In this document: piece after piece, positions 586-48,183 of the stretch | Layout of the letters: each line of letters begins with the position of its first letter | Numbering within the stretch: the stretch's first letter is position 1 | Assembly (NCBI GenBank): GCA_043811375.1 | Contig: JBDRNJ010000039.1 | Span: forward strand, 79,420-143,419 | Direction of reading: 5' to 3' | Source of the DNA: a bacterium | GTDB taxonomy: Bacteria; Zixibacteria; MSB-5A5; GN15; FEB-12 | DNA length: 64,000 nt | Translations under genes and position numbers: made by a program | The notes under the pieces: model-generated | Seen by the model: only the letters and a program-made list of their open reading frames with translations | The model's database searches: none | Told to the model about the DNA's origin: nothing

Positions 586-1074
586 ATGAAAAAAGTAACC
601 CTGTTGGCGGTACTGGTGCTGGCGGTAGGCCTGATTGCTTACGCCGGTGAGGAAGCGCAATGGTTTGATATGGAAAACTGCGCTTTCTGCAGCAATATGT
701 GCAAGAACCCCGAACTGATCGACCATATGATCTGGGAGCATCACAACATCGCTAATGGTATGCTCTCCATCACGACGGTCGAGCCGGAGTTCAAGGCTCC
801 GTATACCGAAGCGATGGATGCCATGAAGAAGCTGGGAGAGGCGATGGAGGTCGGTAAAGTCGATATGGCCGAGCTCAAACTGTGTGGCGCCTGCCAACAC
901 TACGGCACCCTGGAAGCGGCCGGCGCCAAATCTGAATACATCTTTGGCGAGGCCGCCGACATTTTCCTGATGACTTCCGATGATCCCGAACTGGTCAAAA
1001 AGATCCAGGAATATGGCCAGCGGAATAATGACGAAATGGCCAAGATGGAGGCAGCCAAGAAAAAAGCTGAGTAG
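586..1074 (+). CDS. Secreted/periplasmic hypothetical protein with two CxxC motifs
   Basis: Signal peptide MKKVTLLAVLVLAVGLIAYA; CAFC and CGAC motifs; purine-rich RBS upstream. Confidence 0.75.
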   Translation: MKKVTLLAVLVLAVGLIAYAGEEAQWFDMENCAFCSNMCKNPELIDHMIWEHHNIANGMLSITTVEPEFKAPYTEAMDAMKKLGEAMEVGKVDMAELKLCGACQHYGTLEAAGAKSEYIFGEAADIFLMTSDDPELVKKIQEYGQRNNDEMAKMEAAKKKAE

Positions 1075-35288: not shown

Positions 35289-36137
35289 CTACGACTGATA
35301 CGGGTGCAATAGACGTCTGATCAACGCCGAAGCCAGATATGTGATGCTGGCCAGTATGATCACGGTCGCCCCGGGCGGAAGATTGTAACTGTAGCTAAGA
35401 CCCAGGCCGACAGTGGTAAAGGCGGCACAGAGCCCGGTTGCCAGCAGCATTGTTCGTCTCATGGTACGGCAGAAATGTCCGGCCACAGCAGCCGGAATAG
35501 TCAGCAGTGCGATCACCATTACGATCCCCACTACCGTTACCAGAATGACCACCGTCAGCGCCGTTATGGTAAGCAGCAGCAAATAAAACAGCCCGACCCT
35601 GATGCCGCGCACCTGCGCGAATTCCTCATCAAAGCTGACGGCCACCAGTTGACGGTAAAACAGCAACCCTACCGCAAGAACCAGCAGGTCCAGACCCACT
35701 ATGAGCCAGAGGTCGCCGGTGGTAACCAGCAGGATATTACCGAACAGGTAGCTCATCAAATCCTGGTTATAACCGGGAGTGGCGGCGATGAAGATAATAC
35801 CGACGGCCATGCCCACGGCCCAGAGGGTGCCGATTACCGTGTCTTCTCTCTCGTGAGCCCGTCGGTTTACCAGCGTCATGGCAACCGCTGCCAGCAGTGC
35901 CGCCGCTACCGCTCCGTGAGTCGGATGCAGACCGGTCATGCCGTGCACGTGCGCCAGGTAGTACGCCAGGCCCATGCCGCCCAGGACACTGTGAGCGATA
36001 CCTCCCACCAGGTAGGTGATCCGACGGGTGACGACATAGGTACCGACCACGCCGCAGGCTACACTGGCCAGCAACCCGGTCAGCACGGCGTTGAGCATAA
36101 AGCCGTGGTGAGCCAGGGCGTAAAAAAACTCGATCAC
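35289..36137 (-). CDS. znuB: Zn/Mn ABC transporter permease
   Basis: IAHSVLGG, YLFGNIL, SFDEEFA, VGIVMVIALLTIP. Confidence 0.9.
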   Translation of the reverse strand: MIEFFYALAHHGFMLNAVLTGLLASVACGVVGTYVVTRRITYLVGGIAHSVLGGMGLAYYLAHVHGMTGLHPTHGAVAAALLAAVAMTLVNRRAHEREDTVIGTLWAVGMAVGIIFIAATPGYNQDLMSYLFGNILLVTTGDLWLIVGLDLLVLAVGLLFYRQLVAVSFDEEFAQVRGIRVGLFYLLLLTITALTVVILVTVVGIVMVIALLTIPAAVAGHFCRTMRRTMLLATGLCAAFTTVGLGLSYSYNLPPGATVIILASITYLASALIRRLLHPYQS

Positions 36138-36889
36138 CGGTTCTCCTCGTGGGAGTTGTGCCGGTCGTGCCGTACCAGTCGAACCTGGCGACCATACAAC
36201 TCAGCCATGATATCTTCTTCCATGGCGCTGGTGGGGTGAACGGCGACCGATCGATTGACACAAACCACCCGCTTTACGAACTGGGAGACAAAAGCCGGGT
36301 CGTGCGATACCATAACGATGGTCAGACGTTGGTTAAGCCGACGCAGCAGTTCAAACAGTTCCTGTTCAACGGCCAGGTCCAGGTTGGCCGTCGGCTCGTC
36401 CAGCAACAATATTTCCGGCTCGGCCACCAGCGCCCGGGCTATCAGCAGTCGTCGCTGTTGCCCGCCCGAGAGGCTGGAAAACACCTGATGTCGCTGTTCC
36501 CACAGGTCAACTTCGTGTAGTACTCGATCGACGATTTCGCGGTCGCGGCGTCGTTGCGCTCCCCAGCGGGGCAGGTTGCCCAGGCGGCCCATGAGGACGA
36601 TGTCCGACACATCGGCGGGAAACTGCTGATCCAGCCGTATCTGCTGCGGCATGTATCCCAGGCGGGGGCGCACCCGCCGGGGAGACTGCCCCAGTACCCG
36701 TACCGTACCGCGACTCGGCCTGACCAGTCCCAGGATAAGTTTCAACAGCGTTGTCTTGCCGCCGCCGTTGGGCCCCACCACCCAGACAAACTCCCGTTCG
36801 GATATGGTCAGGTTAACGTCCGTCAGCACCGGTGAACTGTCATAACCGAAATCAACACCGCTTAAGGCTATCACCGGCCGGTCTTTCAC
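36134..36889 (-). CDS. znuC: Zn/Mn ABC transporter ATP-binding protein
   Basis: GPNGGGKTT, LSGGQ, LLLDEP, VSHD; His-rich tail. Confidence 0.92.
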   Translation of the reverse strand: MKDRPVIALSGVDFGYDSSPVLTDVNLTISEREFVWVVGPNGGGKTTLLKLILGLVRPSRGTVRVLGQSPRRVRPRLGYMPQQIRLDQQFPADVSDIVLMGRLGNLPRWGAQRRRDREIVDRVLHEVDLWEQRHQVFSSLSGGQQRRLLIARALVAEPEILLLDEPTANLDLAVEQELFELLRRLNQRLTIVMVSHDPAFVSQFVKRVVCVNRSVAVHPTSAMEEDIMAELYGRQVRLVRHDRHNSHEENR

Positions 36890-36959
36890 CGTTTCCGTCC
36901 TTTCGTTTCGTTATCGTTTGATTCCACCCGGTGTGAATTGCAACGACATTGATGCCAAC

Positions 36960-37850
36960 TTACCCGGCACGTCCGGTCAACCCTTGTGATATTTTGTGTG
37001 CCATATCCCGCAGGTTGTTCAGGTAGTCTTGCGCCAGAGGGTCCAGCAATACCACCTGGCCACCGATGGCGGTTGCGATCGCTTCTGCCCCTGAGGACGA
37101 AAACTGGGCCTGCACGAAAATGATTTTGACGCTGTCCTGCCGGGCTTGTTCCACCAAAGCCGTCAATTGTCGACCGCCGGGCTCCTTGCCGGCTTGCTCA
37201 ACCGCCACCTGTTGCAAACCGTATGCGTCGGCAAAATATCCGTAAGAAGGATGAAAAACATAAAACCTGCTGTCTCGCCACGGCGCCAACAATCGGGCTA
37301 TCTCGGCATCGATGCTGTCCAGATCAGCTTCGAAAGCAGCCAGGTTCCCACGATATATCAGGGCATGGGCCGAATCGAGTCGGCACAGTTGATCGCAAAT
37401 GGTAGCCGCCTGAATCTTGACCAGTTGCGGGTCTAACCAGATATGGGGATCGGTACCATGGTGATGATGATCGTGGTGATCGTCAGCCATGACACGAAGT
37501 TCGATACCGCGCCGGGTGTCGATCACCGGCAAATCGGGGAAACCCGCAATGATTTTATCCACTAAGCGTTGTTCGAAAGGAACACCGATACGGAAATAGG
37601 TGTCGGCCTGCGAAAGTCGAGCCACCTTCCGGGGAGTAAGGTCCAGTGTCGCCGGCGATTGACCCGGCCCGACCAGTACCTCGACATCCACCAGGTCTCC
37701 GCCCACACGTTCGACAAAATATACCTGCGGCAGGATGCTTACAAACAGGTTGAGCCGGGCGCCCTTTTCCCGACTCTCCTCAGCCTCAGTTATCAGCCCC
37801 GCTGACGATAGAGCCAGCAGCAATACCAGGTACCATCGCCTTCGTGTCAT
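36960..37850 (-). CDS. znuA: Zn ABC transporter substrate-binding protein
   Basis: VSILP, His loop DDHHDHHHHG, DPHIWLDP, VFHPSYGYF; GAGGAG RBS. Confidence 0.9.
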   Translation of the reverse strand: MTRRRWYLVLLLALSSAGLITEAEESREKGARLNLFVSILPQVYFVERVGGDLVDVEVLVGPGQSPATLDLTPRKVARLSQADTYFRIGVPFEQRLVDKIIAGFPDLPVIDTRRGIELRVMADDHHDHHHHGTDPHIWLDPQLVKIQAATICDQLCRLDSAHALIYRGNLAAFEADLDSIDAEIARLLAPWRDSRFYVFHPSYGYFADAYGLQQVAVEQAGKEPGGRQLTALVEQARQDSVKIIFVQAQFSSSGAEAIATAIGGQVVLLDPLAQDYLNNLRDMAHKISQGLTGRAG

Positions 37851-37896
37851 AAATCGATAGCTCCTCGGCTGTAATGGATAGCGACCACCAGCCATC

Positions 37897-38175
37897 TTAT
37901 GGGTGCCTTCCCCTGCCTGCCGGTTTCTTGGTGCAAACCAGGTGAAACTCATGGCAGCCCCGACACTCCTGCAATGAATGATCCCGGGCAAAACGGTCCC
38001 AGTGACGCATCTGGTTAATGGTCAATGTCCCGTTACCGCGACATAAAGGGCAAACATTCTCCAGAGCCGCGAATACCGCCTGTCGTATGAAACGCGAGCG
38101 GTTCTCTATCCCCTTAAACGCTGCCAGCAGCGATTCATCTGCCTTGAAAGTAATGATCTCAGATTTTTTGCTCAT
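37897..38175 (-). CDS. Ribbon-helix-helix (CopG-like) regulator with Cys/His-rich metal-binding C-terminus
   Basis: IITFKAD beta-strand, NRSRFIRQAV helix, CPLC...H...H...CRGCH..H..C; first gene of the znu operon. Confidence 0.75.
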   Translation of the reverse strand: MSKKSEIITFKADESLLAAFKGIENRSRFIRQAVFAALENVCPLCRGNGTLTINQMRHWDRFARDHSLQECRGCHEFHLVCTKKPAGRGRHP

Positions 38176-38279: not shown

Positions 38280-38527
38280 GACCAACCGTTGATTTTTGCC
38301 GGGCCGGTCCACTGTGGGGGCGCTCCTATACTTTATGGGCCGGCAGGTACGGTTAACGGCAGTTTTCCCGTGGTGGAGGGTTCTCCTCTCTGGTATGATA
38401 ACAGTCCCAACGGTCACGTTACCGGGTGTTGTTCAATATGTTACCGGGCGGTGGCGGGTAAAATCAAGATATGTGGGCTGGTGGCATGGGGTTTACACTA
38501 CCGGCAGCAAACAAAAAGGTGAAGAGC

Positions 38528-38893
38528 ATGAAAAAAAGAAAATTCGTCGATCAATCCGGCCTGACTCTGCTGGAAGTGCTGATAGCCATGCTGATCATGA
38601 GCATCGCGTTATTGCTGTTGCTCAATATGGCTATGGTGGCGCTGGACGGCAATGACTGGTCCAACAAAACCACAATTGCCACCCAGTTAATGCAGGAAAA
38701 GCTCGAGCAATTGCGCAACAGTAGCAGCCCGGCCAGTGGAGCCGATACCACCCTGGCAGTAAGCCGTAGGTGGGTGGTGAGCAATGCCGGCAGTCACCTG
38801 CGCCAGGTAGATATCTACGCTACCTGGGAGGATATCTCGGCCAACTGGGTTACCGACTCACTGTCAACCTTCATCAAAACCAATTCTCTATAG
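38528..38893 (+). CDS. PilV-like minor type IV pilin
   Basis: Prepilin cleavage motif G|LTLLEVLIAM. Confidence 0.82.
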   Translation: MKKRKFVDQSGLTLLEVLIAMLIMSIALLLLLNMAMVALDGNDWSNKTTIATQLMQEKLEQLRNSSSPASGADTTLAVSRRWVVSNAGSHLRQVDIYATWEDISANWVTDSLSTFIKTNSL

Positions 38894-38901
38894 GTGCCGA
38901 C

Positions 38902-39732
38902 ATGAACAAATGGATCAAGAAAGCCAAAAGCCGGGGAGGTACGACCTTCCTTGAGGTAATGATAGCCCTGTTGATCATGAGCGTCATCACCGCGGCTATT
39001 TTCAACCTGTACGTTACCCAGCACAAGAACTACATGACCCAGGATGACATCACCAATATCCAGCAGAACGTGCGGGCCTCGATCGATGAGATGTCCCGGC
39101 ATATCCGGATGGCCGGCTACGACCTGCCGCTGGGCTTTCCGGCTATCACGGCGTCCAACACCAACCCGGATACGATCTGCATTACCTACCTTCACAACGG
39201 CTGCGACACTTACCTGAGTGCTCCGATGCCTCAGCCATCGGCGGAGCTGAAGTGCGCCACCGATATATCGTGCTTCAATGACGGCCAGTGGGTGTACATT
39301 TATGATCCGGATTCGGCCGTGGGTGAGTGGTTTGAGATAACTCACGTTCAGGCGGCGGCCTTTCACATTCAGCACAACACGATGGTGCTCAGTCGCAAGT
39401 ACCAGGCCAACGCCCTGATCCTGGCCATGTCACAGGTGAAATTCTTTATCGACAGCACGTCCAATCCCGACCACCCCAATCTGATGCTTCAGATCATGGG
39501 CCAGACGCCGCAAGTGTTTGCCGAAGACATCACCGATCTGCAGTTTAGATACACGATGAAAAACGGTGCCGTCGTTGACGTACCGGCGGTGGCTGACAAC
39601 ATAAGAGAAGTAGCCATCGTTGTGACGGGAAGGTCGCAAAATCGTGATGTTGAACTGGCTGATCATCCTGAGGACCAGTATCGCCAGAGAACATTTTCGA
39701 CATCGGTCTTTCTGAGAAACGTCGGTATCTGA
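38902..39732 (+). CDS. PilW-like minor type IV pilin
   Basis: G|TTFLEVMIAL, QQNVR...IRMAGY, C-terminal RTFSTSVFLRN. Confidence 0.82.
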   Translation: MNKWIKKAKSRGGTTFLEVMIALLIMSVITAAIFNLYVTQHKNYMTQDDITNIQQNVRASIDEMSRHIRMAGYDLPLGFPAITASNTNPDTICITYLHNGCDTYLSAPMPQPSAELKCATDISCFNDGQWVYIYDPDSAVGEWFEITHVQAAAFHIQHNTMVLSRKYQANALILAMSQVKFFIDSTSNPDHPNLMLQIMGQTPQVFAEDITDLQFRYTMKNGAVVDVPAVADNIREVAIVVTGRSQNRDVELADHPEDQYRQRTFSTSVFLRNVGI

Positions 39733-39749
39733 CAAGGAGACAACATTCG

Positions 39750-41411
39750 ATGAAAACATCTTACATCTATTCCGAACAGGGCATGGCTACCCTGATAGCC
39801 CTGATAATGGTCGCCATGCTGACCCTTCTGGGACTGGCGGCGCTTAGCACGTCGGACGACGAGGTCAGCATTGCCGGCAACGAGCTTCAGGAGACACGCG
39901 CCTTCTATGCGGCCGAAGCCGGACTGGAGAAAGTGGCCGCCTACATGCTTAGCCAGTTCGACTCCACGGGCGTACCACCCACGGTCATGCCGAGCGGTAG
40001 TGATTATATAAACAACACTCATGTGACCTACGCTGCCGTCAGCGACGGCCCGGCCACCACCAAGGACCTCTCCAACGGCACCCTGGCCGGCCTGCATGCC
40101 CTGGTGCAATCGTTTTCCATGACCGCCGCGGCCACCAATGCCGCCCAGAACACTTCCATGCAACTGGCGCAGTCTTTCGAAGCGGCGCTGGTGCCGATTT
40201 TCCAGTTTGCCGTATTCTATAACAATGATCTTGAGATCGCTCCCGGACCTGACATGACTCTCATGGGGCGAGTCCATTCCAACGGCGATATGTGGCTCCA
40301 GGCCGGCAGCAGTCTAAAAATGGACAGTTATGTCACTGCTTCCGGTAACATCCGGCACGGTTGTATGGGAGCCGGTACAGCATCCGGTGGGGATGTGTTG
40401 ATAAAAGATGGCGGCGGCAACTATGTCTCCATGAAGGAAGGCTCCGGCTGGCTGGAATCCATCGATGGCCACTGGTACGATTCATCGGTCGCCCGCTGGC
40501 AGGGACGGGTCCAGGATTCCACCCATGGCCAGCCGGCGTTGAACCTGCCCCTGTCAAGTACCGCCGCCGGGGATCCCCACAAGATAATTGAAGGAAAAAC
40601 CGGTAACGATGATTCCTACGAGCGCAAGGCGACTCTCAAGTTTATTGATCGGACGGCTTACCGGGATGTCGCCGGCGCCTGGGTCGATGTGACCGCCGAT
40701 ATGGTCTCCAAGGGAATTATCACCTTTACGGACGACAAGTTCCATGACGGGCGCGAGGGTACCTGGGTCGACTGCATGGAACTGGATGTGACAGAGCTGT
40801 ATGACGAAGGTTACGGCCCGGCCAACGGTGTCATCTACTACTCCGACCAGACGTCCGATTTTCCCGCCCTGCGCCTCAACAACGCTTCTGAACTCGATGC
40901 CGGGCTGACGGTAGCCTGTGAAAACCCGGTCTATGTGAATGGTGACTATAACAGCACGAAAAAGAAGCCGGCAGCTATACTTGGCGATGCTGTCACGTTC
41001 CTGTCCAACAGTTGGGACGACAGTAAGAGTTCGGACCCTGTCAATGATCGAGCGGCTTCCAATACGACCGCCAATGTCTGCTACCTGACCGGTAACACCG
41101 AGACTACCGCCTCCGACTACAGCGGCGGCCTTGAGAATCTACCCCGCTTTCTGGAGAAGTGGTCCGGCAAAACATTTACCTGGCTTGGCTCGGCCATCAA
41201 CCTGTGGAACTCTGTGCAGGCCAACAGCCCCTGGAGCTACGGTTCATACTACACGGCGCCTATACGGGACTGGGCTTTTGATACTGACCTTGATGACCCC
41301 AACAATATGCCGCCGGAAACGCCGATGTTGCGGGTGTTTCAGCGTATCGGCTGGCATCAGCAGCATGTCGGTTACGATGCTTCACACGGTCAGGGCGAGG
41401 TTACCTATTAA
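39750..41411 (+). CDS. PilX-like minor pilin with large C-terminal domain
   Basis: G|MATLIAL lacking Glu5, AFYAAEAGLE, GRVHSNG. Confidence 0.8.
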   Translation: MKTSYIYSEQGMATLIALIMVAMLTLLGLAALSTSDDEVSIAGNELQETRAFYAAEAGLEKVAAYMLSQFDSTGVPPTVMPSGSDYINNTHVTYAAVSDGPATTKDLSNGTLAGLHALVQSFSMTAAATNAAQNTSMQLAQSFEAALVPIFQFAVFYNNDLEIAPGPDMTLMGRVHSNGDMWLQAGSSLKMDSYVTASGNIRHGCMGAGTASGGDVLIKDGGGNYVSMKEGSGWLESIDGHWYDSSVARWQGRVQDSTHGQPALNLPLSSTAAGDPHKIIEGKTGNDDSYERKATLKFIDRTAYRDVAGAWVDVTADMVSKGIITFTDDKFHDGREGTWVDCMELDVTELYDEGYGPANGVIYYSDQTSDFPALRLNNASELDAGLTVACENPVYVNGDYNSTKKKPAAILGDAVTFLSNSWDDSKSSDPVNDRAASNTTANVCYLTGNTETTASDYSGGLENLPRFLEKWSGKTFTWLGSAINLWNSVQANSPWSYGSYYTAPIRDWAFDTDLDDPNNMPPETPMLRVFQRIGWHQQHVGYDASHGQGEVTY

Positions 41412-41432: not shown

Positions 41433-41464
41433 AAAGACCCGCCCAACCGGGCGGGTCTTTTTTT
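41433..41464 (+). terminator. Rho-independent terminator
   Basis: AAAGACCCGCCC-AACC-GGGCGGGTCTTT followed by a T tract. Confidence 0.85.
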
Positions 41465-41590: not shown

Positions 41591-41619
41591 TTGACAAGGG
41601 CACAAATGTGCAGTATTAT
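41591..41619 (+). promoter_or_regulatory. Sigma70 promoter with a palindromic (LexA-like) operator in the spacer
   Basis: TTGACA, 17 bp, TATTAT; GCACA-AA-TGTGC palindrome at 41600-41611. Confidence 0.65.
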
Positions 41620-41664: not shown

Positions 41665-41913
41665 ATGGATCAATCGGAAATAGGCAGTAATGGTATCGCT
41701 GGTGAGATATTGGCCGCTGGAGAGCCGTCGGCTGTTGGTGAGCCATTGGCTTCATTTGAAACCGGGTTGGCGTTGTCGACCGAGACCGGCAATGCCGAAA
41801 CGGGCTATTGTTATCTGAACGCCGGCACCTGCCCCGACTGCGCGGCCGCCATGGTTCGATTGGGAGGCTGCTTTGCCTGCCCGTCCTGTGGTTATGAAAG
41901 TTGTGCCGGGTAA
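41665..41913 (+). CDS. Small zinc-ribbon protein
   Basis: CPDC...GGCFACPSCGYESC, resembling the C-terminal Zn ribbon of class II ribonucleotide reductases; start uncertain. Confidence 0.65.
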   Translation: MDQSEIGSNGIAGEILAAGEPSAVGEPLASFETGLALSTETGNAETGYCYLNAGTCPDCAAAMVRLGGCFACPSCGYESCAG

Positions 41914-41950
41914 GATGGCGGGACACTATTGAAACAGGGGGAAAGCTCTT

Positions 41951-44638
41951 ATGAGATTGAGTGATTTGGCAAAATGGGGTGTGCCCGAGAGAATCATCGC
42001 CGGTTGGCGGCTGCGCCAGGGCGAGTCACTTTTACCGGTGCAGGCTCAGGCGGTACGCAAAGGTCTGCTGGGCCGAAAGACGGATGGCGGGGTGGATAGT
42101 CCGGTGCGGATGTTGATCTCGGCGCCTACTTCTTCAGGCAAATCATTTTGTGCCGAAATGGCGATGGCCCGGGCTTTGTCGTGTCGTCGCAAGGCGGTTA
42201 TGCTGGTGCCGCTGAAATCACTGGCGGAACAGAAACATGCCCTGTTTGAAAAAACCTATGGATCACTGGGAGTAAAATGTTTGATCGCCACCGGGGATCA
42301 CCCGGAAAATGACCGCCGGTTTATCACCGGAGATTACCAGGTGGCGGTAGCTATTTACGAGAAGTTTGACCTGTTGTTGACGGGTGTCCTGGATGCTCTG
42401 AAGAATATCGGCCTGGTGGTGATTGACGAAATCCAGACAATCGCCGAACCGGGCCGCGGGGCGGTGCTGGAACGGCTGCTGACAAAAATACTGGCCTCGA
42501 TCTACCGGCCATCGCTGGTCGGCCTGTCGGCGGTGATCGGTGATGGCGACAGTTCGGCCGGGCGGCTGGCATCCTGGCTTCAGTCAACCCTGGTCGAAGA
42601 GACAGCTCGACCGGTCGATCTTATCCGCGGCGTGGCGGTGGCCGGGAAGTTCTACTATCGGTCATACAACAGCGGCCTTGATGGCAGCGAGCCGTTTGCG
42701 GACGGTGAGACGGTTCAGCACCCGTTTGACACCTTTGTACAGCAGGTCAAATCTCATCCCGGACCTACGCTGGTATTTCTCAAGTCGCGGCGGGAAACGG
42801 TAGATAGCGCCTTCCGACTGGCGGCCGCCGTCGCCTGGCCCGAGGCCGGTCGGGCACTTAAGCTTCTGGACGAGGAGGAACCGTCGTTTCTGGTTCGCTC
42901 GTTGCGTCAGGCGCTGACACGCGGGGTTGCTTTTCACAACGCCGACCTGTCGCCACGACAGCGAGCTATAGTGGAACAGGCTTTTATGGACGGAGAAGTG
43001 CGGGTGATTTTTGCCACCACGACACTGGCCCTGGGAGTTGACCTGCCCGTGGAGACGGTCTACCTGGAGACGGTCAAATACAGCGCCGGCAACTATGACG
43101 GTCGTCCGACCCTGGTTCCGGTCACGCGTGCCGAATTTGACAATATGACCGGACGCGCCGGGAGATTGCGCGGTGACAATTGTACGCCGGGGCGGGCCAT
43201 TATCATGGCCCGGTCGGACCTTGACCGCGATATCCTCTGGCAGAACTATATCGCTCCCGAAAGACCGGAGCCGATCAGGTCAGCCTTCGACTCGCTGCCG
43301 CCGGAAGACTGGTTGCTGGACATGATTACCTGCGGGCTGATAACCGATCCGGACTCGATCGAACAGTTGTTTGACAGAACCTTCTATGCCGCCATTGGGC
43401 AGGGTGATCAGACGCCGGATTTTGACTCGGCCCTGGCGCACCTGCAGCACTGTCGACTGATTCACCGGGAGAGTTCGAATGGTGCGGTGACCGTTTCGCC
43501 GACCGGAAAGGCAACGGCGCTGGCCAGCCTGTCGGTGGCACAGGCAGAGTACCTGTTGCAGAAGCTGTCCGATGACCCTCCCACCACCATTGCCGGCTGC
43601 ACGGCACTGGTTCTGAGTGCTCCGGGCTGGACACTGCCCCCCGGGATGCTGACCGCCTTCGAATTGGCGGAGAATATGCCGGTCAGGATGTTGTACCAAC
43701 ACTTCGACCACCTGCTTCAGGATGCTGCGATCCTTCTGGGCGAGAGTCGCCGTCAGGAACCCCTGACCTACACCGCAGCCGTACGGTTAAAGGCGTGGTT
43801 ACTTCTGCACCAGTGGCGCGAACTCACACCGGTGCAGCAACTCGAACAACAGTTCCAGTTGCACCTGGGACAGATTCTGGCCCTGGGGGAAACGGCGGCC
43901 CATCTGGTGCACGGCCTCGATGTACTGGCTGCGACCACTAACCATCACACGTCGTTGCCGGACGACCTGAGCCGATATGTTTTCAGCCTTCGCATGGGTA
44001 TGCCGGCCGGCCTGGAACGACTGTATGCCCGCCTGGGTCGGATTCTCAACCGCAGCGATTTCCTGGCTCTGCACAATGCCGGGGTGGAAAGTATAACCGG
44101 TCTGCAAGAGTTGTCGCAGGCACAATTGGGCCGGTTTATCAAAGGGGAGAACAAACTGAGCTTATTAAGAGAGAAACTGCAACTTATTTCACAGGAGAAC
44201 ACCATGCAAACACAAACAACGCCGAGCCAGTCGTGTCTGCCGGCGGCGATGGCCGTGTCCGTTCGACCTGAATTGATTGAGATCGACGGTACTTTCGAAC
44301 GGGAACGCTACCTGGTCAAAATCAACGGCTTTCCGATCCGCCTGACCGGCAAATCATTCAAGTATTTCACGAAACTGGCCTGGTCACGACTCAACCGCGA
44401 TTCCGGCTGGATGTACAAGGAAGATATCGAAACCGGTTTCAACCAGGCCCGGTATCTCTACCGCATGAAGAGAGAAATTGTCTCGGCCCTGAACCTGGCC
44501 TGGGGGGTAATAGAAAACAATCGATTGGGTTATTATCGTCTCAATGCCGACCCCGGCGCCATCCGGGTGAACCTGGATAATCTTCGTGTTCACCCCGATT
44601 ACGAAGTGAGCAATCTGGCCAACCGGAGCGCCAACTGA
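41951..44638 (+). CDS. Ski2/Hel308-like SF2 helicase with an added C-terminal winged-helix domain
   Basis: LLPVQ, APTSSGKS, VPLKSLAEQK, YEKFD, VIDEIQ, LSA, FHNADL, ATTTLALGVDLP, MTGRAGR; C-terminal IENNRLGYYRL wing. Confidence 0.88.
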   Translation: MRLSDLAKWGVPERIIAGWRLRQGESLLPVQAQAVRKGLLGRKTDGGVDSPVRMLISAPTSSGKSFCAEMAMARALSCRRKAVMLVPLKSLAEQKHALFEKTYGSLGVKCLIATGDHPENDRRFITGDYQVAVAIYEKFDLLLTGVLDALKNIGLVVIDEIQTIAEPGRGAVLERLLTKILASIYRPSLVGLSAVIGDGDSSAGRLASWLQSTLVEETARPVDLIRGVAVAGKFYYRSYNSGLDGSEPFADGETVQHPFDTFVQQVKSHPGPTLVFLKSRRETVDSAFRLAAAVAWPEAGRALKLLDEEEPSFLVRSLRQALTRGVAFHNADLSPRQRAIVEQAFMDGEVRVIFATTTLALGVDLPVETVYLETVKYSAGNYDGRPTLVPVTRAEFDNMTGRAGRLRGDNCTPGRAIIMARSDLDRDILWQNYIAPERPEPIRSAFDSLPPEDWLLDMITCGLITDPDSIEQLFDRTFYAAIGQGDQTPDFDSALAHLQHCRLIHRESSNGAVTVSPTGKATALASLSVAQAEYLLQKLSDDPPTTIAGCTALVLSAPGWTLPPGMLTAFELAENMPVRMLYQHFDHLLQDAAILLGESRRQEPLTYTAAVRLKAWLLLHQWRELTPVQQLEQQFQLHLGQILALGETAAHLVHGLDVLAATTNHHTSLPDDLSRYVFSLRMGMPAGLERLYARLGRILNRSDFLALHNAGVESITGLQELSQAQLGRFIKGENKLSLLREKLQLISQENTMQTQTTPSQSCLPAAMAVSVRPELIEIDGTFERERYLVKINGFPIRLTGKSFKYFTKLAWSRLNRDSGWMYKEDIETGFNQARYLYRMKREIVSALNLAWGVIENNRLGYYRLNADPGAIRVNLDNLRVHPDYEVSNLANRSAN

Positions 44639-44639
44639 G

Positions 44640-44761
44640 GCGGTGGCATCGCCACATCTATAGGCATCGCCAGTGGCTTGCCGGTGGCAAGCCACTTTTA
44701 TTGGCGGGAGACAAGCTCCTGCTCTATGTGCGTTAGAACAATCACCTTTTGGGACATCCCC
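44640..44761 (+). repeat. Truncated copy of the REP-containing MITE-like element (family A)
   Basis: GGTGGCATCGCCAC...TTGGCGGGAGACAAGC...CGTTAGAACAATCACCTTTTGGGACA. Confidence 0.75.
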
Positions 44762-45798: not shown

Positions 45799-48183
45799 AT
45801 GAAGACCATTGTAAAGACCACTAAGAAGCTGCCGCTTAAGACAACCGGTCCGTCGGCAGGCGTCCCTGTATTGCCGTTGCGAAATGGTGTGCTTCTCCCG
45901 GGATCGATTATGACCGTGTCCCTTATTCGGCCTGAAGAGGTCGATCTTGTTCAGTACTGCCAAACCCACCGTAAGGAACTGCTGGTGAGTCATTCGTCGG
46001 AAGCAACCTCGGACGGAGCGGCGCCTGTTTCCCAGGTTGGTGTCATGGCAAGTATATGTCATGTTTTTCAAGCTGCCGATGGGTTGCCGATGGTTACACT
46101 GGAAGGTATCCGGCGGGCGGTTCTGGTGGAAATTACCGCGGAGACTCCCTTACTCCTGGGCACTGTAAATGAGATCGAATTGTCCGATGACGCCGCCCGG
46201 ATTAGTACCTCTGAAATCATGGCTTGCTTCAGGATGACCCGTGAATCTGAGACAATCGGTATGTTGCAGAAGCATTCCGGTGACAACTCGTTGCTGATCG
46301 ACCGGATTTCAGCAGTCCTGAATCTGCCACCGTCTGCCCGGCAGGAACTGCTCGAAACGGTGAACCTCAAAGATCGGTTGACTCTTCTGGAATCTTTTCA
46401 AAAAACACCGGCGCCGGCATCTTCAGTTAACTGTGGTGAAATCGGAGTGTCGTCAGATAGTCGCCGAGAGAGCAACCTGGCTGACGCCGCGCACATAAGA
46501 GCTTTGATCGAAAAGTCGTCTTTTCTGCCCGATGAAGTGGCGGCCAGAGCTACGCACGAGGTTGATCGGTTGACTCAATTGCCGACGGCTTCGGCCGAAT
46601 ACGGCGCCACCAAATTCTACCTTGACTGGCTGTTGTCTCTCCCCTGGGGAAAATGCTCGGGCGAGGATTATGACATAACTCACGCCGAGAAGATTCTCAC
46701 AACTGAATACTACGGCCCCGCCAGTCTCAAAGAACAGATTCTGCAGCGACTGTCCGTTCGCAAGTTGCAGCGGGGTGCCGGCGATGCCCCCACCCTGTGT
46801 TTCATTGGCGCCCCCGGAACCGGCAAGGCTTCGCTGGCCAAAGCAATTGCCCACGCTCTGGGCAAGGAGCTGATCAGGATATCCGTCGGAGGGATCACCG
46901 ACGTCGGCGAAGTGAAGGGAATGCCCCGCACGTTCCTGGCCGCCCTGCCCGGGAAAATTATACGTTCCCTGCGCAACGTTGAGTCCTGCGACCCGGTGGT
47001 GCTGCTGGAGGACGTCGACTATTTCAATCTCCACAATGACGCCTCGGTCAATATGGCGATGCTGGAGGCGATCGATACTCGTCGCAACGCCCGCTTTCTG
47101 GACAACTACCTGGGCATTCCTTTTGATCTGAGTAAAATCTTCTTCATCTGTTCGGTGCGTTCCTTCGAGGAAATTCCGGAGCAGTTCATACCGCGCCTTG
47201 AGATCATTGAGTTGCCCGGTTATACCGAGAAAGAAAAGCGAGCCATTTCCAAACGGTACCTGATTCCCAATCTGCTGAATAGACTCGGGTTGACCAAAGC
47301 GGAGGTGAAATTTACCGATCAGGCGCTGACCAGGATTGTCACCAACTACACCCAGGAAGCCGGGCTGCTGTCGTTTTCGCAGAATATCGAGAAGATATGC
47401 CGCAGAATCGCTCTGGAGAAACTCCAGAAACCGAAAAAGTCGTGGACGATAAACGACCGTAACCTTGAATCCTACCTGGGCCCTGCCCTGTTTTTCCCCG
47501 AGCGAGCTGAAGCAGCCCCCGAAATCGGTACCGCAGCCGGACTGGCCTGGACCGGTGCCGGCGGCGAACTAATGTTTATCGAGGGCCTCAAGATGAAGGG
47601 CAGTGGTGATATTATCACCACCGGGTCACTCGGCGAAGTGATGCGGGAATCTATCCAGGCCGCCCATTCCTATGTGCGTTCCAAGGCCGACATGCTGGGG
47701 ATAGATTTCAGTGACTTCAACGATTTTGATATCCACGTTCATTTTCCCTCTGGCGCTATTCCCAAAGACGGCCCTTCGGCCGGTGTTACCGTCTGCCTGG
47801 TCATTGCCTCGGTGATGTCGGAACGCCCTATCCGCAATGATATCGCCATGACCGGGGAGGTCACCCTGCGCGGGCGGGTATTGCGCGTGGCCGGAATCAA
47901 GGAGAAGATATCAGCCGCCCACCGGTCCGGTATCTATCACGTGGCCATGCCTCAGGGCAATCAGAAAGATATCAAGGAGTTGCCCCGGGAAATGGTGCGC
48001 AAGATGAAATTCACGTTCATCGAGCGCGTCGACGAACTGTTCGAAACCTGCCTGCTTAATTTCACTCCTTCCTCGTACACCCTGGAAAAAGTTTTCGCCG
48101 AGGAAATCAGGAAAGTCAAGCGTAAGAAAAAAACTCCCCCACAGAAGCGCCGGACTCCGCGGGTAGCCAGGAAACAGGAATAA
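45799..48183 (+). CDS. lon: Lon protease homologue (LonA architecture) with degenerate ATPase motifs
   Basis: PVLPLR N-domain, [24 protein letters not shown] (catalytic Ser), GIKEK (catalytic Lys); Walker [10 protein letters not shown], Walker B LLEDVD. Confidence 0.9.

Follow-up and report, generated by a model that had tools for sequence, protein, structure and literature searches.

The stretch of DNA analyzed here (the window) comprises 64,000 nucleotides of a genome of the phylum Zixibacteria (contig JBDRNJ010000039.1, positions 79,420 to 143,419), and all positions below count from its first letter. It holds a two-gene unit in which an open reading frame (ORF) for a short zinc-ribbon protein is followed, after a gap of 37 bp, by an ORF for a Hel308-like superfamily 2 (SF2) helicase fused to a C-terminal winged-helix domain, the tail (Table 1). 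An initial annotation had described a two-gene unit with its own promoter and operator, and this description stands: both ORFs, a promoter, a palindromic operator within it and two enclosing terminator-like hairpins are present. At the junction of helicase and tail we predict an internal, in-frame translation start, which that annotation had missed and from which the tail could be made a second time as a free protein. Papers are cited by their PMC accessions and for the portions of text available to us; G, C, L and f numbers are our labels for genomes, contigs, loci and families.

Table 1. Features of the helicase unit, in window positions (res, residues of the helicase ORF).
Feature	Position	Strand	Remarks
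Terminator-like hairpin, end of upstream pilX-like gene, insulating the unit	41433..41460	+	12 pairs, T run; upstream gene has a PilX_N match
Promoter, sigma-70-type, TTGACA-17-TATTAT	41591..41619	+	11/12 consensus matches; layout kept in orthologues
Palindromic operator GGCACAAATGTGCA	41599..41612	.	Between -35 and -10; one mismatch to TGCAC-N4-GTGCA; likely LexA box
Zinc-ribbon ORF	41665..41913	+	82 aa counted from ATG
Helicase ORF	41951..44638	+	895 aa; Hel308-fold SF2 helicase and tail
Helicase domains	res 1-751, 752-770, 771-891	+	Hel308 fold, disordered linker, winged helix; profile matches, AlphaFold model
Walker A / motif I, APTSSGKS, intact	42122..42145	+	P59, T60, G63, K64 invariant in 42 rows
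Motif II, DEIQ (DExQ replacing DExH)	42425..42436	+	res 159; DExQ in 51/52 orthologues
Motif VI, NMTGRAGR (N replacing Q)	43142..43165	+	res 398; N in 44/52; Q in 0/50 parsed
Predicted internal start: in-frame Shine-Dalgarno AGGAG (44193-44197) and ATG (44204-44206, Met752)	44193..44206	+	Duplex-energy scan
Free 144-aa winged-helix protein, predicted as an in-frame second product	44204..44638	+	
OmpR/PhoB-type winged helix with two extra C-terminal helices	44270..44626	+	Model, structure search
Predicted recognition helix GFNQARYLYRMK	44435-44470	+	Stretch invariant in 32 orthologues
Terminator-like hairpin, 3' end of unit	44672..44696	+	11 pairs, T run

Of 52 orthologous upstream regions, 51 have the palindrome TGCAC-N4-GTGCA (variant TGAAC-N4-GTTCA) three bases after TTGAC; the single miss is a truncated locus, and 30 shuffles gave 0 matches. 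In units that lack the zinc-ribbon gene, the box lies 46–136 bases 5' of the helicase. The genome's own lexA promoter shows the same box layout, and its LexA has the cleavage and catalytic motifs. Among 30 lexA upstream regions, 23 contain the site at ≤2 mismatches (shuffle mean 3.05, maximum 8), and in 22 of the 30 it directly follows TTGAC. A strict promoter-plus-box pattern, which does not catch the window's own site (one that begins with G), occurs at nine places in five whole genomes, namely at four lexA genes, four helicase units and one DinB-like gene, with 0 hits for the reversed control; among 101 genomes, 85 hold one to four strict sites, most of them unassigned to genes, and the reversed pattern gives 13 hits in 12 genomes. 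Box variants follow lineage, so that G037 has TGAAC-N4-GTTCA at both lexA and the helicase. At one locus (L071, G042:C64), a divergent ImuA/RecA-like gene shares the upstream region and has a second perfect box; this gene and the DinB-like gene are named from their sequences. The recA gene was rejected as a LexA target, the box being found at 6 of 30 recA genes, which is not above chance (shuffle mean 3.2, maximum 6). At 15 of 15 family-f1 loci (upstream of G000:C39:18219-19322, L121, and 14 others in L100-L128), the recA promoter carries another palindrome, CTGAC-N7-GTCAG, placed ~25 bases 5' of an extended -10 element.

Judged by the co-occurrence of the box, the unit is very probably under LexA control, and the earlier suggestion of damage inducibility gains support from the operator common to the unit and lexA. 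If the palindrome is, as is likely, a LexA box, the regulon is very small, mostly excludes recA and has the helicase unit as its main conserved target. As in known LexA/SOS regulons, a palindrome with a 4-base spacer is found in the promoter, at lexA and at a DinB-like gene, whereas here there are very few sites per genome and recA lies mostly outside. The LexA box of Fibrobacter succinogenes is reportedly TGCNC-N4-GTGCA. The available text of PMC3091678 confirms just that Fibrobacter LexA was studied, not its box. The Bacillus subtilis box, CGAAC-N4-GTTCG, shares the 4-base spacer (PMC9578287), and LexA autoregulation and control of dinB are given as core SOS traits (PMC8565304).

The helicase had been described as Hel308-like in organization, with paired non-standard motifs, and both points are confirmed. 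Similarity to Hel308 spans residues 5–739 (NCBIfam PRK02362, E-value 3.8e-82), with 277 bits lying below the family cut-off of 887; a second Hel308 family, NF040935, gives 185 bits and its cut-off of 1200 is not reached. The best solved relative in the sequence search is Hjm (2zj2, E 2.4e-50). An AlphaFold model with a predicted local distance difference test (pLDDT) score of 87.2 has Hjm/Hel308 2zj5 as its best match in a structure search (E 1.7e-40, template modeling (TM) score 0.89 by target), and over the top seven structural rows, led by Hjm and Hel308, TM is 0.83–0.90 by target (0.84–0.90 for the archaeal enzymes). Compared with 2zj5, 2zj2, 2va8 and 2p6r, the predicted model has the five domains listed for Hel308 in PMC13623763 (RecA1, RecA2, winged helix, ratchet and helix-hairpin-helix). 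Both motif substitutions were found in place and are widely kept among the 52 orthologues (Table 1). The archaeal Hel308 rows of our tree alignment pair DExH with Q, a combination that the helicase here does not have; plasmid-borne bacterial helicases of ~1010–1050 aa share the Q/N pair (DExQ in 5/6, N-x-x-GRAGR in 6/6). We consider it highly likely that the helicase is active.

We built a quick tree of 38 helicase cores, for which the careful search is unfinished; its archaeal sample consists of four rows from the Nanoarchaeota phylum and one plasmid row, and it took in no HELQ, ASH-Ski2 or verified HamB. The 23 Zixibacteria rows form one clade, with a value of 98 in the Shimodaira–Hasegawa-like approximate likelihood ratio test (SH-aLRT), joined by six plasmid helicases at 87, which is not firm. 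Together these stand apart from the thin archaeal sample, and Lhr rows form a separate long branch; matches of the helicase to Lhr families cover short stretches only (E 2.8e-10 and 4.7e-9). The term archaeal-type, which had been applied to the helicase, holds for the fold and has to be qualified for the core, which groups in this tree, at the support just given, with plasmid-borne bacterial Ski2-like helicases. In the Nanoarchaeota phylum, many genomes (L307-L316 among others) match Hel308 in two places, a first RecA domain of ~220 aa and a remainder of ~520 aa, often on different contigs, which we read as a naturally split Hel308.

A linker and an OmpR-like winged-helix-turn-helix had been proposed behind the helicase body, and the predicted structure agrees; the segments INGFPIRLT and IENNRLGYYRL are present as described. 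A tail model built from 32 orthologues (pLDDT 88.7) shows an N-terminal beta-sheet, three helices and a C-terminal beta-hairpin wing, as the OmpR/PhoB type requires. Searched against 48,161 chains, its top 19 rows are all OmpR/PhoB-type winged helices (BaeR: Z 10.2, root-mean-square deviation 2.6, 90 aligned). Foldseek also ranked the OmpR/PhoB family first, yet gave no row below E 0.001. A search with 32 members found no significant Pfam match, including Trans_reg_C, and no receiver domain; NCBIfam, PADLOC and PHROGs contain no fitting family, and a PDB sequence search with the tail profile returned nothing below E 0.08. The tail shares the fold of OmpR/PhoB-type domains (BaeR, VanR, AdeR, CadC and ToxR, Z up to 10.2) and differs from them by the lack of a receiver or membrane sensor and of a Pfam match, by an identity of 7–20%, by two extra C-terminal helices and by another recognition-helix sequence. 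It is an unnamed winged-helix family, predicted to bind DNA, and is more conserved than the helicase body.

The internal start falls exactly at the boundary of helicase and tail, and the disorder of the AlphaFold model begins at Met752. In many orthologues the linker reads E-E-V-x-M, because the linker DNA is a Shine-Dalgarno sequence before an in-frame ATG. At a duplex energy of ≤ -10 kcal/mol, a best linker ATG is found in 29 of 52 linkers and in 0 of 455 control windows of equal size placed elsewhere in the same genes; at ≤ -7 kcal/mol, the counts are 44/52 and 20/455. The window's own internal site scores -7.4 (helicase start, -9.4), and its surroundings show less folding than any of the 70 coding positions sampled. 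A second, overlapping set yields an internal site in 118 of 121 distinct fused genes, with ATG, GTG and TTG counted. These features of the DNA make it likely that the free tail is a real second product. In-frame second products occur in other bacterial genes, among them ClpB, IF2, McrB and Tn5 transposase; our literature search found no helicase gene whose short product is the DNA-binding domain alone. Two orthologues of ~1025–1070 aa (L085, G035:C5; L334, G005:C17) have a long insertion ahead of the tail and keep the internal start.

The conservation of this start bears on a rival explanation, by which the unit encodes an SOS-induced Hel308-like helicase whose tail is a non-specific duplex-binding arm, the internal start being a relic of fusion or the source of a mere competitor without regulatory role. 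Accessory winged helices are common in helicases. BrxHI is one example (PMC12839542). Consistent with such an arm, the fusion persists in several families that have no clear internal start, and no target site was found. Against it, the start has persisted among families with 30–45% identical helicases, which would be longer than a neutral relic is expected to last, and the tail is better conserved than the body and survives alone under the box in one genome (G120, below); we regard this explanation as unlikely.

The OmpR-type fold of the tail, together with the general lack of the LexA box at recA and the presence of CTGAC-N7-GTCAG at all 15 f1 recA loci, fits another possibility, namely a one-component damage sensor. 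In such a sensor the helicase body would bind single-stranded DNA and switch the fused winged helix to activate repair genes, for example recA through this palindrome, and the free tail would tune or block the response. DriD and PafBC are damage-sensor activators to which it may be likened. However, the other families mostly have no palindrome at the same recA position though the tail is kept, the other intergenic near-matches in the window's genome do not lie at repair genes, no link between tail and site emerged, and OmpR-type domains usually read direct repeats. We therefore consider a sensor of this kind improbable.

The 82-aa protein encoded by the first gene has a variable N-terminus and a C-terminal six-cysteine zinc ribbon that resembles the end of class II ribonucleotide reductase (NCBIfam PRK08665, E 2.2e-6, residues 46–81 on profile positions 724–759 of 759). 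All 54 aligned rows share CxxC, CxxC-x2-C and a final C, and the N-terminus varies freely. Over its final 36 residues the protein aligns with the end of PRK08665 and with that of the genome's own NrdJ; the gene differs from NrdJ in being a separate mini-gene with two more invariant cysteines. An origin as a split-off piece of NrdJ was ruled out, since the genome's own NrdJ keeps its ribbon. The gene pair described at the outset is present here, and 44 of the 52 units contain the zinc-ribbon gene; truncated loci make up two of the units without it, most true losses fall in one clade, and the pairing thus does not extend to some lineages. Six loci had suggested a coupling of the zinc-ribbon gene to the internal start, which we discarded: the six form one clade, and members of f9, f14 and f17 have the gene without a clear start, whereas f3 has a start without the gene. 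A complex prediction for tail, zinc ribbon and Zn scored 0.01, which speaks neither for nor against contact.

By profile, the tail is present in 194 of 198 near-complete Zixibacteria genomes, nearly always as a single copy (117 of 121 genomes with a single-protein query), so that the gene is a core gene and not part of a defence island. The unit occupies a stable locus, often before lon. Named relatives are mostly from Zixibacteria, with some records labelled otherwise, and five genomes with weak helicase scores gave no orthologue on retest. G120 (family f19, 95% complete; L325, G120:C73, minus strand) retains the box, the zinc-ribbon gene and, with a site of its own (-9.0), a free tail; the helicase is missing from between the two genes, and a search of the remaining genome gave no orthologue of it (best E 6.5e-6). 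Further free copies lie in a prophage of G043, on a phage-like contig, on four further archaeal-looking contigs and in a genome labelled Nanoarchaeota without a helicase match. Free winged-helix genes ≤58% identical to the tail occur in archaeal contexts (L209:6001-6450 and L256, L261, L274, L278, L287), and the archaeal free tail is rare, with 1 in 201 genomes in the class of G201. The copies in G120, the prophage and the archaea, together with 98 tail cluster representatives of ≤200 aa among the best 150 of 255, suggest that the tail can stand independent of the helicase. The splits suggested for G179/L135, G516, G037 and L263 resemble assembly frameshifts or stops and were not counted as natural free tails; L332 was left out, the profile having matched the wrong stretch.

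A more distant relative of the tail forms the C-terminal domain of proteins of 360–635 aa, one of which adjoins an integrase in the window's genome. An integrative element (G000:C83:17850-25421, L292:7850-15422; excisionase-like, sigma-like, primase and integrase genes) is bordered by a promoter with a LexA-type box, and next to its integrase gene lies a truncated, distant tail relative; C71:22967 shows a similar boxed promoter and a similar downstream stretch, with no clear gene. The winged helix might accordingly be a domesticated regulator of mobile elements, induced on damage to control prophages or integrative elements with related proteins, the fused helicase being aimed at their DNA. 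The free relatives in the G043 prophage and on the phage-like contig, the distant tail relative next to the integrase in the window's genome with the boxed promoter bordering that element, Atlas look-alikes of 131–142 aa in clusters rich in phage records, and the location of the nearest non-Zixibacteria helicases on plasmids and islands are in its favor. Yet two scans of viral contigs confirmed no tail relative, none was found in annotated phages or PHROGs, and strict single-copy conservation fits housekeeping better, which makes a mobile-element role quite improbable.

The closest fold, predicted over residues 1–751, is that of Hel308/Hjm (2zj2, 2zj5, 2va8, 2p6r) and of the HELQ and DNA polymerase theta helicase domains. 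The helicase here differs from Hel308 in its ~23–26% identity, scores below the family cut-offs, DExQ/N motifs and OmpR-type tail with its own start, and in being bacterial and placed behind a LexA-type box. In the available texts, Ski2-like enzymes are reported from eukaryal and archaeal genomes (PMC10946056), and the wider helicase group spans all domains (PMC13623763). Ski2-like helicases of plasmids and islands (Rhizobium WP_231283981.1, Ralstonia QVX41855.1) are 28–35% identical over ≤99% of the helicase body; these proteins of ~1010–1050 aa have ~260 extra N-terminal residues, terminate about where the helicase body does and occur sporadically, and our searches found no characterization of them. 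Their clade occurs in many phyla (L298-L300, L317-L319), once beside KAP NTPase, TatD and TIR genes.

The unit had also been put forward as an anti-phage module, and a Hachiman-type system would have the helicase sense damaged DNA and trigger an effector. HamB of Hachiman is likewise a Ski2-like bacterial helicase linked to DNA damage and is the best PADLOC family (E 1.8e-28); Hachiman responds to DNA damage (PMC12278908), and related plasmid helicases can sit in defence islands. However, the PADLOC matches (HamB, SngC, BrxHI) are confined to short stretches of the core. HamB binds the nuclease HamA through an N-terminal helical bundle and further has a DEGH motif and a C-terminal OB-like barrel (PMC12278908, in its available text), none of which is seen here; the helicase aligns with Hel308 from residue 5–10 on, which leaves no N-terminal HamA-binding bundle. 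No HamA (DUF1837) gene was found in the unit, the zinc-ribbon gene has no PADLOC match, and among the neighbors, read in relatives as well, there is no HamA-like or other nuclease gene. Nor were BrxD, PglW, PglX or PglZ neighbors of BREX type 2 found, and the BrxHI match is limited to residues 53–365; the BrxHI features used for comparison, a HAS barrel and an Lhr-like C-terminus, are from PMC12839542. The unit's single copy in almost every genome of the phylum, its stable locus (frequently upstream of lon), the missing HamA-like partner and the partial PADLOC matches led us to reject a defence island; the anti-phage claim was not borne out, and a Hachiman-type system is very improbable. The unit lies outside Hachiman, BREX and Lhr; we infer that it works like Hel308 under SOS control, without being a member by cut-off or motif. 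Our literature search found no description of the unit or its box; subscription papers and supplements, which lay outside that search, may cover the Fibrobacter box or bacterial Hel308-like genes.

Based on these observations, we propose, with a probability of roughly 0.55, that the unit is a damage-induced core operon that makes three proteins from two genes, and that the free tail is a second-tier regulator. LexA would bind the palindrome between -35 and -10, a box common to lexA, and RecA-triggered cleavage of LexA would free the promoter. The helicase, with intact Walker A and B residues and a predicted Hel308 fold, would by analogy with its family move 3' to 5' along single-stranded DNA at recombination intermediates or stalled forks. 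From the same mRNA, the free 144-aa winged helix would be translated at an ATG at the end of the helicase body, behind a strong ribosome-binding site with little folding. Fused and free forms would read the same duplex site by the conserved recognition helix, the free form acting independently as a second-tier regulator in the damage response and the motor being brought to such sites by the fused form; for sequence-specific regulation by the free tail we put the odds somewhat above even. The helicase gene may also encode, as the initial annotation had suggested, a hybrid of helicase and transcription factor. The zinc-ribbon protein may be an accessory factor, which is the weakest step.

Several observations weigh against this proposal: (i) both sets used for the internal start lean to the order of the window's genome, and the 52 genes are related and not independent events; (ii) the internal start is weak or absent in tested members of f6, f9-f14, f16 and f17, so the fusion works without it; (iii) we found no DNA site targeted by the winged helix; (iv) recA is mostly without the box, which is odd for an SOS regulon; (v) the DExQ/N motifs are unlike those of characterized Hel308, so that helicase activity is a prediction; (vi) the 98 short tail representatives include some fragments of fused genes, and genomic context was seen for few of them; and (vii) the strict recognition-helix pattern is kept by 24 of 57 free copies, as against 39 of 42 fused ones. 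A broader extension of the proposal is a two-tier damage response in which LexA controls little beyond itself and the operon, the signal is relayed by the winged helix as a transcription factor, made from one gene both as a free protein and attached to a Hel308-type motor whose body gates the attached copy on damaged DNA, and the free copies in prophages, integrative elements and some archaea, a new regulator family, serve to use or mimic the relay; we hold this to be tentative and rather doubtful.

Around the unit, positions 38471-41411 on its 5' side hold a pilus-type pseudopilin cluster (two genes with N-methylation motifs and the PilX-like gene), which is not kept beside the unit in relatives. 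A Lon-like gene (45799-48183), in relatives often directly 3' of the helicase, is separated from it in the window by an outer-membrane-protein gene on the opposite strand, and its Walker A (GAPGTGKA) and Walker B (LLEDVD) motifs look degenerate. On the minus strand, a small ribbon-helix-like protein with CxxC...CxxC (37897-38175), possibly a metal-responsive regulator, lies directly before a metal ABC transporter operon (35289-37991, minus strand).

Hel308-type helicases are called absent from bacteria in the available text of PMC12278908 (2024), whereas in a whole phylum the main conserved target of a LexA-type box is a helicase with this predicted fold. The helicase is a bacterial, easily expressed model for an enzyme family tied to HELQ and polymerase theta, and a natural DExQ/N variant. 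The likely SOS regulon of Zixibacteria has an unusual shape, being tiny and mostly without recA. The internal start is more surprising, in that a DNA-binding domain is apparently produced on its own as well as joined to a motor, and is retained alone once the motor is lost.

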